Below, piece after piece: positions 127 through 45,855 of a stretch of DNA of 64,000 bases (position 1 is the first letter of the stretch; every line of letters begins with the position of its first letter). This stretch comes from a phage. The notes beneath the pieces are model-generated. The model saw only the letters and a list, made by a program, of their open reading frames with translations. It searched no databases and was not told the DNA's origin. The stretch is from sequence record PZ386965.1; one strand, given 5' to 3'. A program made the translations under genes and the position numbers.

Positions 127-843
127 ATGAATTATAACTCAATATACGAAAAGCTTATTACCAATGCTAAATCAAGAAGTTTAGATGGTTATACAGAACG
201 TCATCACATTATACCACAATGTTTAGGTGGAAGTGATGATGCTTCAAACTTAGTAGACTTAACACCAGAAGAACATTATTTGGCACATCAACTGTTGGTA
301 AAAATCTATCCAGATAATGCCTCTTTAATATACGCTGCTCGTATGATGACCATATCATCTCCTAAAGCAGATAGAAGCAAAAACAAATTATTTGGATGGC
401 TTCGTCGTAAGAATCAAGAAGTTCAAAAGAACAAAGAATTCACGGCTGAAACCCGTAAGAAAATGTCCGAGTCTGCAAAAAATAAACCAAAGATTACCTG
501 TCCACATTGTGGTTTAACTGGAACTGAAGGAAACATGCGTCGTTGGCATTTTGATAATTGTAAACAAGGTCCAACGCCTAAAATAGTAAAATTATCTGAT
601 GATGAAAAACAGAGGATAAGTTCTAAACTTAAAACAATAGAGTGGAAACTCCACACATGTGTACACTGTGGTCTAGAAGGAAAAGCTTGCAATATAGTTC
701 CTCATGAGAAAAACTGCAAACTTAATCCTAATAGAATAAAACCTAATGTAACAATAGTGGAATGTCCATACTGCTCTAAAAGTGGTTCTATATCAAATAT
801 GAAAAGATGGCATTTCGATAATTGTAAATATAAGCCTCATTAA
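127..843 (+). CDS. HNH homing endonuclease with three C-terminal zinc-finger-like repeats
   Basis: 238 aa; N-terminal ERHHIIPxxxGG..N..EH..AH HNH signature; three CxxC...(R/K)RWHFDNCK-type repeats; ATG with SD; only plus-strand gene in the early region. Confidence 0.75.
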   Translation: MNYNSIYEKLITNAKSRSLDGYTERHHIIPQCLGGSDDASNLVDLTPEEHYLAHQLLVKIYPDNASLIYAARMMTISSPKADRSKNKLFGWLRRKNQEVQKNKEFTAETRKKMSESAKNKPKITCPHCGLTGTEGNMRRWHFDNCKQGPTPKIVKLSDDEKQRISSKLKTIEWKLHTCVHCGLEGKACNIVPHEKNCKLNPNRIKPNVTIVECPYCSKSGSISNMKRWHFDNCKYKPH

Positions 844-43298: not shown

Positions 43299-44120
43299 TT
43301 AAGATTTCCAAACAGTATTCGCGGAGAAACGTTTTCCTTTTGACATAAACTGCTGAGTAGGTAACATGATTATGTTAGCCCAGTCTTTAGGAGCTATTTC
43401 TGTTATTGTTCCTCTAATGTGGCCTGGCAGGTATGCTTTAATCATTTTGTCAGCACCTTGAAATCCTTTCACCTTGCTCCAGTCTATCTTCAACTTCGTG
43501 TTATTAGTAATAGTAGTTGTGCTAGCATATTGCTTCAGCAATTCTTCAAGAAACTGTTGTCGTGCTTTAGGTGGGATATAGTGCAAGTTTAACCCATACA
43601 TCAAATTATGTTTACCCAATCCTAAATAAATAATCAAAGGATATCTGTCCCAATACGGCAGAGTATCTTTATGTTTAGCATCATACACGTAAGTATAAAT
43701 TTTGCCTGGCGTAGGCTTGACTACTTTATGACCTTTTACACTTTTCTTAATTGTTTCAACAAACCACTTAGATGATTTGTTGTTTACTGCTGCGCCTTCA
43801 TTTCTAATCTTTTCTCGTATTGAACTGCGAAACGAGTTTATCATCAGAAGTTGACGTTCTTGCTTATTAAGTTTATTTTTAGGTTTAGATTCAAGCGTTT
43901 CAATTTTCTGTGCAGTCTTAATAGATGATGCATATCTAGACATTGCAGATGTAAACGACGAGTATTTTATTCCTTTTGATTCTGCAAATGCTTTTGCAGT
44001 GATTCCTTTCTCTTTAGCTTTCTTGTATTCTAATCCTATCTCAATCCATTTTCTTTCATTCATAGACTGAGCAATCTTAGGGGCTTGTACGCCTTCAGAT
44101 ATAATTTGGAATATGCTCAT
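43299..44120 (-). CDS. 2: DNA end-protector protein gp2
   Basis: 273 aa; length and position as T4 gp2. Confidence 0.8.
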
Positions 44121-44767
44121 TCAACTTTCCTCATTTTACAATTATCACCATGCCAACGTTTATAAGGCGCAGGTTTACATTCTATACCGCAGTATTGGCA
44201 TATCTTATTAGGAGTATTTAAGTATCCTAATCTCATGTTTTCCTTTTCTTCAGGAGTTCTATTTCGTCCCGTAAGAGTATTTTTTATTTTGTCTCTAATC
44301 TCTTTAGGCATTATCCTGCCTCGGCCTGCTTTACCTATTTTAGCTTTATGCTCTTCGGATAATTTCTTACCCTTCTTAGCTAAACTCATTTTCTTTTTAG
44401 ATTCTTCGGAAATAGGACCTAATTTTCTACCTCTGGATGAATCGCCTATTCTTTTTCGCACATCAATAGAACGGCCTCGTCCTCCCTTTCCTCCTAGGTC
44501 TATATTATATGTATCTTCTCTATCCACAAAAGATTGATCAACTAATTCTGCTTCCTTTTGGAAAGCCATTTCTTCATTTAGTAATTCGTCACCGGTATCA
44601 TACACATATAATACTTCTTTTACAAAATTATCTAATCCGTATTTAGCATGGGCTTTTAAGATAATTTTACCTGTTCCTTTATAAGAATCATCCGGGTTAT
44701 TAGTTTTATGAACACCTATATAAATTTTATTATTTACGATGTTAGTTATTTTATATACAGTATACAT
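44117..44767 (-). CDS. GIY-YIG homing endonuclease (seg-like) with C-terminal zinc-finger module
   Basis: 216 aa; N-terminal [16 protein letters not shown] (GIY...YIG) with conserved R and E; C-terminal CQYCG...KRWHGDNCK module shared with the HNH gene at 127-843; wedged between genes 2 and 4 with overlapping stops and starts. Confidence 0.75.
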
Positions 44768-44768
44768 A

Positions 44769-45218
44769 TCATCCCTTATATCCTAAACGACGTAAACCGT
44801 CTTCTGTGAGAATTCTGAATTTAATATTTCTTTTAGCCGCTAATGCTGACGCAGCTTTCCATTTGTCGCAGTTCACAGACCACACGTAGATCTCGTTCAT
44901 ATAACGTTTCTTTGCTGCAGTAGTAAGATTTGCAGGCTTAATAGGCGGTTGAGTTTCTTTCTTTGGTTTTATTTCTACAAAAAACTCTTGACCTGATGCA
45001 TCTTTCATCCATATGTCCATATAGTATCGACGTTTCTTACCTTCTGCGTTACAGAAATATGGAATTACTGCTGTTTCACTACCCCATGCAATAATTTCTG
45101 GATTTTTATCTAACCATTCGAAAAAGAATTTTTCCCAGTTTGAACGATACGTTATTTTGGTATGGTCTCCACGGTATTTTTTTAAATTTTTCGGGACCCA
45201 TTTACCAGAGTAGGCCAT
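44769..45218 (-). CDS. 4: head completion protein gp4
   Basis: 149 aa from MAYSGKWVPKNLKKYRGD with AAGGAGG SD; ORF-track N-terminal extension rejected. Confidence 0.85.
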   Translation of the reverse strand: MAYSGKWVPKNLKKYRGDHTKITYRSNWEKFFFEWLDKNPEIIAWGSETAVIPYFCNAEGKKRRYYMDIWMKDASGQEFFVEIKPKKETQPPIKPANLTTAAKKRYMNEIYVWSVNCDKWKAASALAAKRNIKFRILTEDGLRRLGYKG

Positions 45219-45229
45219 GTTGTCCTCCT

Positions 45230-45237
45230 TATAAATA
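45230..45237 (+). promoter_or_regulatory. T4-type late promoter (TATAAATA) for gene 53 operon
   Basis: Exact TATAAATA on plus strand 43 nt upstream of gene 53 start. Confidence 0.5.
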
Positions 45238-45244
45238 GTATTAT

Positions 45245-45252
45245 TATTTATA
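45245..45252 (-). promoter_or_regulatory. T4-type late promoter (TATAAATA) for gene 4
   Basis: Exact TATAAATA on minus strand 27 nt upstream of gene 4 ATG; divergent from the gene 53 promoter. Confidence 0.5.
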
Positions 45253-45279
45253 CCAATTTCATATTGGAAGGAGACTATC

Positions 45280-45855
45280 TTGTTATTTACATTCTTCGAC
45301 CCAATAGGATATAGTGCTAAAACAGTTGATAAGAATGCACCTACTATTCCTATGACAGACATATTTCGTAACTATAAAGAGTACTTTAAGCGTGTGGCTG
45401 CCAATTATAGATTACGTTCTTATTACATTAAAGGCTCTCCACGTCCTGAAGAACTAGCAAACATAATTTATGGCAACCCGCAATTATACTGGGTTCTTTT
45501 GATGTGCAACGATAACTACGACCCGTATTATGGTTGGATTACATCTCAGGAAGCAGCGTATCAAGCGTCTATTCAGAAATATGCAAATGCTGGTGGAGAC
45601 CAAATTCTTTACCATATTAACGAGAACCGTGAGAAATTTTACAATTTAGTTTCATATCCGGATGAGCCTTTAGTGTGGTATGATAAAGGTGATGAAGCTC
45701 GTAAGTATCCACAATATAAAGGACCTTTAGCTGCAGTAGATACTTATGAAGCGGCAGTATTAGATAATGAAAAACTTCGTAAAATAAAAATTGTTGCAAA
45801 AGAAGATATAAACTCGTTTATTACTGATTTGATTCGTGAGATGGAGATTGCATAA
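45280..45855 (+). CDS. 53: baseplate wedge protein gp53
   Basis: 191 aa; begins at a TTG codon with AAGGAG SD 6 nt upstream (no in-frame ATG upstream); position before gene 5. Confidence 0.8.
   Translation: MLFTFFDPIGYSAKTVDKNAPTIPMTDIFRNYKEYFKRVAANYRLRSYYIKGSPRPEELANIIYGNPQLYWVLLMCNDNYDPYYGWITSQEAAYQASIQKYANAGGDQILYHINENREKFYNLVSYPDEPLVWYDKGDEARKYPQYKGPLAAVDTYEAAVLDNEKLRKIKIVAKEDINSFITDLIREMEIA

Follow-up and report, generated by a model that had tools for sequence, protein, structure and literature searches.

A probable Seg-type homing endonuclease gene between genes 4 and 2 of a Mosigvirus phage ends in an I-TevIII-type zinc finger

The open reading frame at positions 44117-44767 (minus strand) of the 64,000-nucleotide stretch of phage DNA analyzed here (sequence record PZ386965.1, hereafter the window) most probably represents a free-standing homing endonuclease gene of the Seg type, with a GIY-YIG nuclease domain, which invaded the junction between genes 4 and 2 and which is built from modules that include an old and portable zinc finger. 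Judged from the sequence, we assign a probability of about 0.8 to this reading. An HNH endonuclease gene at positions 127-843 uses fingers of the same family, which is explained by the age and portability of this DNA-binding module; the sharing dates far back and extends across whole families, and does not reflect an exchange within the window genome.

The source of the window is a T4-like phage, an RB69-like member of the genus Mosigvirus, and its positions 43299-45362 are 98.9% identical to Escherichia phage HX01. The seg-like gene encodes 216 amino acids and was recognized from its open reading frame, from a match to PHROG 314 and from annotated relatives. It is flanked upstream by gene 4 (positions 44769-45218, minus strand; head completion/closure, 149 amino acids as in the HX01 annotation, beginning with MAYSGKW) and downstream by gene 2, which encodes the DNA end protector (positions 43299-44120, minus strand). 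The reading frame, the PHROG match and the neighbors thus confirm the placement of a Seg-like GIY-YIG gene between genes 4 and 2 in the preliminary description, and the translation agrees with the C-terminal sequence given there. That description also had stop and start codons overlapping on both sides of the gene, which holds for the seg/gene 2 junction, where the seg stop and the gene 2 start share the nucleotides ATGA (positions 44117-44120, minus strand), but not for the gene 4/seg junction, which reads TGA-T-ATG, with a gap of 1 nt (position 44768) and no overlap.

A match to the T4 late-promoter consensus, TATAAATA, is located 27 nt upstream of gene 4 (positions 45245-45252, minus strand) and is, as far as the motif allows, likely to drive a 4-seg-2 transcript. 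A second match precedes the HNH gene by 46 nt. With 9 matches in the window as compared to 7.8 expected by chance, the motif shows no enrichment. No seg-specific promoter was found, nor was there support (z = -1.24) for an RNA hairpin that would mask the start of seg in the way described for other endonuclease genes of T4.

The best family match of the Seg protein is PHROG 314, "homing endonuclease" (1.7e-50, residues 1-211), and proteins that are 100% identical to it and annotated as homing endonucleases are encoded by phages HX01, p000v, GADS24 and ChristianSchoenbein. The catalytic GIY-YIG domain covers about residues 1-95 (positions 44483-44767, minus strand), as judged from invariant residues, a profile match to I-TevI and a fold match. 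Both GIY...YIG motifs are present in the N-terminus, as TVYKIT (Y5) and KIYIGV (Y16, I17, G18), and residues Y5, Y16, G18, E72, Y87 and N88 are invariant across 42 Seg homologs. [quoted passage not shown] The catalytic pair is also present, with E72 aligned to E75 of I-TevI and N88 aligned to N90, in the segments ErEn and gYNia. In the alignment to the Seg profile, the I-TevI segment with the catalytic R27 falls in an insertion; around this region, Y29 and G31 are invariant and H20 and G33 nearly invariant among the 42 homologs.

The AlphaFold2 model of the Seg protein (pLDDT 91.2) matched 1mk0 and 1ln0_B with a Foldseek probability of 1.00 and 1ln0_A with a probability of 0.98 (TMt 0.53-0.57). 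The GIY-YIG domain was the only part identified when the whole model was searched against the PDB, the finger being too small to score. Scores to the curated nuclease models fell below their cutoffs, with 11.8 bits to PF01541 (cutoff 22.6) and 21.1 bits to PF19835 (cutoff 25) in Pfam, and 44.9 bits to TIGR01453 (cutoff 56.05) in NCBIfam. Five NUMOD3-like helices, which are putative DNA-binding repeats, were identified at positions 44216-44467 (minus strand) from the Pfam NUMOD3 model (PF07460), which matched two stretches with 20.7 bits against a cutoff of 20.4, and from the structure model, which places helices of about 11-13 residues at 101-111, 121-131, 138-148, 155-165 and 172-184, mostly with a pLDDT above 90. 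Local HMMs of both catalytic domains identified no further GIY-YIG or HNH genes of the same types in the window.

The Seg protein ends in a C2HC zinc finger of the I-TevIII type, C190-x2-C193-x12-H206-x3-C210 (positions 44138-44200, minus strand), which was identified by a regular expression, an HMM, BLASTP and the structure model. Searches of all six frames of the 64-kb window with the expression C..C.{6,18}H..[ND]C gave only four hits, of which three are located in the HNH reading frame (positions 499-561, 658-717 and 763-825) and one in the GIY-YIG reading frame (44138-44200). An HMM was built from 196 fingers of HNH homologs, with GIY-YIG sequences excluded, and searched against the 974 stop-to-stop reading frames of the window. 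This HNH-only model scored the C-terminus of Seg at 33.1 bits (domain E-value 2e-9), as compared to 8.6 bits for the next best background reading frame, and the three fingers of the HNH protein itself at 60.7, 34.5 and 58.5 bits. In BLASTP comparisons, the fingers of Seg and of the HNH protein in the window align with an E-value of 1e-6, and the Seg finger is identical at 18 of 32 residues to finger II of I-TevIII from phage RB3 (E-value 1e-8). The HMM score and the BLASTP alignment mean that the similarity survives careful alignment, and the homology between the Seg and HNH fingers proposed in the preliminary description is thereby borne out.

Further comparisons relate the finger to a larger family. 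Both the Seg and the HNH proteins match phrog_655 and phrog_27406, with the Seg finger matching the latter. The four ligand positions (C, C, H and C) are the sole invariant columns among 94 aligned fingers, and the predicted fold of the Seg finger is a beta-hairpin followed by a helix that carries C190, C193, H206 and C210 (AlphaFold2). When the 34 C-terminal residues of Seg were compared by tblastn to approximately 50,000 phage records, the matches comprised Seg-like genes, I-TevIII, MobE and many genes of T4-like phages that are annotated as HNH or homing endonucleases. No dedicated Pfam or NCBIfam family matched the finger, and the fingers of I-TevIII are likewise covered by no Pfam model; the Pfam cross-matches that were obtained are sub-threshold or summed over repeats, and are to unrelated zinc ribbons, zf-nanos, zf_C2H2_6 and the like. 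In I-TevIII, each CX2CX12-13HX3C motif holds one zinc, and Cys-to-Ala substitutions lead to the loss of both DNA binding and cleavage (Robbins 2007, PMC1865063). The Seg finger is of the same family, and by analogy with I-TevIII it would bind zinc and DNA.

The HNH gene (positions 127-843, plus strand) is a free-standing homing endonuclease reading frame of 238 amino acids with three fingers, as identified from PHROG, the regular expression and the HMM. Its product matches PHROG 655 at 3.4e-66, with H26, H27, N41, H50 and H54 invariant. The preliminary description counted the RWH-x-DNCK module three times in this gene, which is correct for fingers 1 and 3, the only ones that carry this motif; finger 2 represents a divergent subtype, CVHCGLEGKACNIVPHEKNCK, with a spacing of 11, no RW, and VPHEKNCK at its end. 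Fingers 2 and 3 are 44% identical over 90 amino acids to fingers I and II of I-TevIII (BLASTP, E-value 1e-14), including the CKLNPNRI linker. For the HNH protein, AlphaFold2 (pLDDT 90.8) predicts three beta-beta-alpha units, whose secondary structure follows the pattern of the Seg finger.

Comparison with classical C2H2 fingers gave a weaker result. The finger spacing and the beta-beta-alpha units predicted for both window proteins fit the classical pattern (C-x2-4-C-x12-H-x3-5-H/C, beta-hairpin plus helix), and the Foldseek matches of the HNH model were dominated by C2H2 arrays, in CTCF, Tramtrack and BCL11A, with E-values of 0.08-1. These matches and those to HNH structures in the PDB are weak, none reaching an E-value of 1e-3, and the idea of a classical zinc finger is therefore unproven. 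Pfam zf-C2H2 matched neither the Seg nor the HNH protein, and was found at E-values of 1e-3 or below in 6 of 150 finger-rich relatives. The likeness of the predicted HNH fingers to eukaryotic C2H2 arrays is thus suggestive only.

Fingers of this family are present in 32 of the 120 best GIY-YIG homologs, some of which have two, and in all of the 120 best HNH homologs, with 1-7 copies in each. A profile of the four fingers in the window was searched against a library of 1.84 billion proteins and retrieved 7062 representative proteins (clusters at 50% identity) at E-values of 1e-3 or below, with up to 9 fingers each. Among the best 150 of these 7062, a GIY-YIG N-terminus of the Seg type is present in 59 and the HNH type found in the window in 38, while the rest includes HNH_3 proteins ("YEIHHIDGN") and other GIY-YIG variants. 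Since I-TevIII is of the HNH_3 type and the N-terminus of the window HNH protein does not align with it, the finger family occurs on at least three or four nuclease scaffolds.

The seg gene itself has the distribution of a mobile cassette. It was found in six records, which correspond to only four phages (HX01, p000v, GADS24 and ChristianSchoenbein, with identical proteins). In many Mosigvirus relatives genes 4 and 2 are present at approximately 97% identity and seg is exactly absent, so that only a single T separates the gene 4 stop TAA from the gene 2 ATG (TAA-T-ATG). Linked to seg is a divergent patch of 75 nt at the 3' end of gene 4 (positions 44770-44844, minus strand), which was delimited by comparison with the seg-less phage PTE-Eco05. 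Within the patch 26 of 75 nt differ, with only four amino-acid changes (mostly synonymous), as compared to 9 of 377 nt (2.4%) in the remainder of gene 4 and 7 of 822 nt in gene 2. The patch, searched as an 86-nt stretch, is 100% identical in the six seg-bearing records and was found nowhere else in the searched collection. From this pattern, the patch is likely to be either a co-converted flank or a cleavage-immunity patch. Comparisons with phage P479 and a metagenomic contig (L012, P0002) did not identify its donor, as neither was a clearly better match than the seg-less allele.

The intronless homing of SegB, SegF and SegG moves the gene together with polymorphisms in its flank (PMC2330249, PMC2988022). 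By analogy, the presence/absence polymorphism and the linked patch correspond to the pattern that is left by intronless homing, and the flank probably protects the target. RB69 is reported to lack homing endonuclease genes (PMC2993671). The check for a seg gene at the corresponding site in T4, which had been proposed along with the preliminary description, was negative: genes 4 and 2 abut in T4, and segC is located approximately 3 kb away.

The 4/2 junction is a recurrent landing site. Seg-like genes are found at the same site and in the same orientation in phages RB16 (RB16p187), P479, vB_YenM_P8, KARL-1, STP4-a and ECO111 5-P. Their products have the same architecture as the Seg protein of the window, with a C-terminal finger that ends in KR[WY]HGD[NK]CK, and are 42-65% identical to it in global alignments. 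The identities are 65% in P479 (Gaprivervirus), 53% in the Acinetobacter phage KARL-1 (Lazarusvirus), 46% in STP4-a (Gelderlandvirus) and 42% in RB16 (Pseudotevenvirus), and 73% in the unclassified contig L012. According to the coordinates, the overlap between seg and gene 2 is 4 nt long in P479, RB16 and KARL-1, whereas in STP4-a it is 1 nt long. Seg divergence roughly tracks the divergence of gp4 and gp2 in P479, RB16, KARL-1 and L012, a pattern consistent with long residence combined with frequent loss. The exception is ECO111 5-P, in which the flanks are 94-99.6% identical to those of the window and the Seg protein, which is of the STP4-a type, is only 43% identical. At least two separate invasions of this site must therefore have taken place in the Mosigvirus backbone. 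Codons 197-206 of the window and ECO111 5-P seg genes are identical at 17 of 30 nt, while codons 207-216 and the stop codon are identical at 33 of 33 nt, in continuity with gene 2, and represent the sole stretch that the two genes have in common. The abrupt start of this identity block at codon 207 indicates a recombination boundary inside the finger, just after His206.

If the gene is an invader of the 4/2 junction, the process may be envisaged as follows. The Seg protein would act as a string of modules, with the N-terminal GIY-YIG nuclease followed by the five NUMOD3-like helices and a single C-terminal C-x2-C-x12-H-x3-C finger, and the gene would be expressed late from the 4-seg-2 message. 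When seg-bearing and seg-less phages infect the same cell, the helices and the finger of Seg would contact an extended site in the seg-less relative, at the end of gene 4 or close to it, and the GIY-YIG domain would cut this seg-less site, a target that is suggested by the polymorphism pattern. Repair from the seg-bearing genome would then transfer both seg and the final 75 nt of gene 4, and the patch, with its many synonymous changes, would probably make the donor immune to its own enzyme.

It is also conceivable, although in our judgment rather unlikely, that seg is no longer active in homing and is either a decaying remnant or a gene that has been domesticated as a DNA-binding regulator or as a nuclease that excludes other phages without mobilizing itself. 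The sub-threshold scores to the curated GIY-YIG models and the unplaced equivalent of Arg27 would fit such a loss of activity, but the reading frame is intact, the protein is 100% identical in four independent isolates, and the 42 homologs without exception have the catalytic Glu and Asn as well as the GIY/YIG residues. Likewise, the position of the gene inside an essential late operon, where it provides gene 2 with a ribosome-binding region and with the ATGA coupling, offers a possible reason for its retention, and the rough tracking of flank divergence by Seg in P479, RB16, KARL-1 and L012 would be expected from long vertical residence. Against this, the sharp presence/absence polymorphism and the linked patch within a lineage of 97-99% identity are the trace expected of recent homing, and the second, unrelated allele in ECO111 5-P (Seg 43%, flanks 94-99.6%) indicates that invasion is ongoing. 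Homing activity is not inferable from sequence alone (PMC10448857), and an active homing endonuclease gene remains the preferred reading.

Two other explanations concern the finger rather than the activity of the gene. The preliminary description took the presence of the same module in two nuclease families of one genome as an indication of domain shuffling among homing endonucleases. In general, the exchange of DNA-binding modules between nuclease families is indeed the right evolutionary account; the co-occurrence in this genome is incidental, and marks no shuffling event here. A recent copying of the finger between the HNH and seg genes in this phage or its immediate ancestors is suggested by the presence of both genes in one genome and by the K/R-R-W-H-x-D-N-C-K motif that they have in common, but the finger DNA of the two genes is identical at just 37-39 of 66 nt (56-59%). 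Furthermore, the Seg finger is closer to finger II of I-TevIII and to the fingers of Seg orthologs from other genera than to the local HNH fingers, and it carries a lineage signature that is common to orthologs from metagenomic contigs and from phages of the genera Gaprivervirus and Lazarusvirus. Among close relatives, gain and loss of the two genes have also been independent of each other: an identical seg is present in HX01, which has no HNH gene, and Mosigvirus mar005p1 has the HNH gene and is not among the seg-bearing records. Recent shuffling within the genome is thus highly improbable and effectively already refuted. Equally improbable is chance or convergence, by which the C-x2-C...H-x3-C resemblance would stem from common metal ligands and not from descent. 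The module is short (about 21-28 amino acids) and gives many spurious sub-threshold Pfam matches to unrelated zinc ribbons; however, non-ligand positions are also kept (K/R-R-[WY]-H-[FG]-D-N-C-K), the spacing is the same, a profile built independently from HNH fingers scores 33 bits against a background of 8.6, BLASTP aligns the Seg finger to I-TevIII at an E-value of 1e-8, the same beta-beta-alpha units are predicted in the Seg and HNH models, and the finger follows NUMOD3 helices in both families. Common descent from an old, portable module therefore remains the explanation that we retain for the finger.

The finger itself, characterized so far only in I-TevIII, is thus very widespread, with approximately 7000 clusters at 50% identity that include both GIY-YIG and HNH proteins, and a curated model of it would improve the annotation of phage homing endonucleases. 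No statement on its abundance or on its missing curated model was found in the literature searched. An explicit description of the I-TevIII-type finger on GIY-YIG Seg proteins was also not found in the open-access literature, which is not proof of absence. The cassette of seg and the 75-nt patch is cleanly delimited in near-identical genomes and offers an easy system for the mapping of target sites and immunity.

As a speculative idea, to which we give only a small chance, the C2HC finger could be the phage counterpart of the beta-beta-alpha finger as a portable reader of DNA, with the 3' half of its reading frame, which is highly conserved and encodes H-G-D-N-C-K, serving as a recombination joint at which different nuclease cassettes are swapped at one locus. 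The finger is tandemly expanded to between 1 and 9 copies and is found on at least four scaffolds (Seg-type GIY-YIG, other GIY-YIG, HNH_3 and the HNH type of the window); the role as a joint was suggested by the window/ECO111 5-P breakpoint after His206, with 17 of 30 nt identical before it and 30 of 30 nt after it. If true, these proteins would be natural zinc-finger nucleases, and the recognition by each finger could perhaps be deciphered.

The finger (described for I-TevIII in 2007), the shuffling of modules between GIY-YIG and HNH enzymes and the annotation of homing endonucleases in the GenBank relatives are all established knowledge, and the current understanding of homing endonuclease evolution is unchanged by this ordinary case of a known mix-and-match design. 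DNA-binding modules common to GIY-YIG, HNH and other homing endonucleases, including repeats, have been described and explained by domain shuffling (PMC1564403, PMC10448857, PMC1865063). The same sharing of modules is expressed in the NUMOD concept and in HNH enzymes of the Mob class with C-terminal zinc fingers, although the I-TevIII-type finger has no dedicated Pfam model. I-TevIII, which is encoded in the nrdB group I intron of RB3 and is a truncated relic in T4, has the same finger motif as Seg, CX2CX12-13HX3C. Its catalytic domain is of the HNH_3 type (PF13392), whereas that of Seg is GIY-YIG, and the window HNH protein belongs to another HNH subtype, with an N-terminus that BLASTP does not align to I-TevIII. 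I-TevIII is also intron-encoded and acts as a dimer with two fingers, whereas Seg is free-standing and has one. In I-TevI, the zinc finger is located in the linker and is a distance determinant rather than a DNA-binding element (PMC1865063), unlike the C-terminal C2HC finger of Seg. The Seg proteins of T4 itself apparently lack the finger, since the tblastn search with the finger matched T4 only at the I-TevIII relic. In other respects, Seg resembles SegA-G of T4 and I-TevI in its N-terminal GIY-YIG domain with the I-TevI fold and in its NUMOD3 helices, and the gene resembles the T4 seg genes in being free-standing and intergenic, with a presence/absence polymorphism and a linked flanking patch.

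The phage ECO111 5-P has a near-identical Mosigvirus backbone and carries a GIY-YIG endonuclease gene at the same site, between genes 4 and 2, but its seg allele is unrelated to the window allele. The counterpart of the window gene (44117-44767, minus strand) is located at 1486-2223 in the ECO111 5-P sequence (L004), is STP4-a-like and shows only 43% identity to the window allele. In a comparison of the two genes, the identity shifts from 17 of 30 nucleotides to 30 of 30 nucleotides, with the switch placed exactly after the codon for the zinc-finger histidine. The Seg finger contains an additional loop cysteine, Cys197 (window 44179-44181, in the context E-C-K-P-A-P), which is conserved among the closest Seg relatives, though not in other fingers; the loop cysteine of the STP4-a/ECO111-type finger is at another position (VRKAC).

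Presence/absence polymorphism was also observed for the free-standing HNH endonuclease gene (127-843, plus strand), which is missing in HX01, ECO111 5-P and many other phages but is carried by others, among them Mosigvirus mar005p1 and a20. The HNH gene is convergent with gene 46 (region 840-860), and the stop codons of the two genes overlap. Phages with and without the HNH gene have different sequences in the final approximately five codons of gene 46, the window version being TVMKAS*.

The mechanically defined open reading frame of gene 4 (44769-45362, minus strand, 197 aa) overlaps gene 53 on the opposite strand. Translation almost certainly begins instead at the ATG at position 45218, which is preceded by AAGGAGG and gives a product of 149 aa with the N-terminus MAYSGKW, a length identical to that annotated in HX01. 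Between the divergent genes 4 and 53, the motif TATAAATA occurs twice on opposite strands, separated by 8 nt (45230-45252), in what looks like a back-to-back pair of late promoters. The gene 4 product, a head-completion protein, matches the Pfam domain Tn7_TnsA-like_N (1.1e-19), indicative of an endonuclease-like fold.

Phage P479 contains another "putative mobile endonuclease" immediately downstream of gene 2 (L003 2969-3628), and its late-gene block thus holds two homing-type genes. Residues 74-114 of I-TevIII from RB3 (L010) match the Pfam domain FlgM barely above the cutoff (26.2 versus 25 bits), a probably spurious match to a segment of helical linker. Some metagenomic proteins (P0177, P0253, P0241, P0249, P0379) contain 7-9 tandem fingers, as exemplified by P0177, in which seven fingers spaced by approximately 33-42 residues follow a GIY-YIG-like N-terminus.
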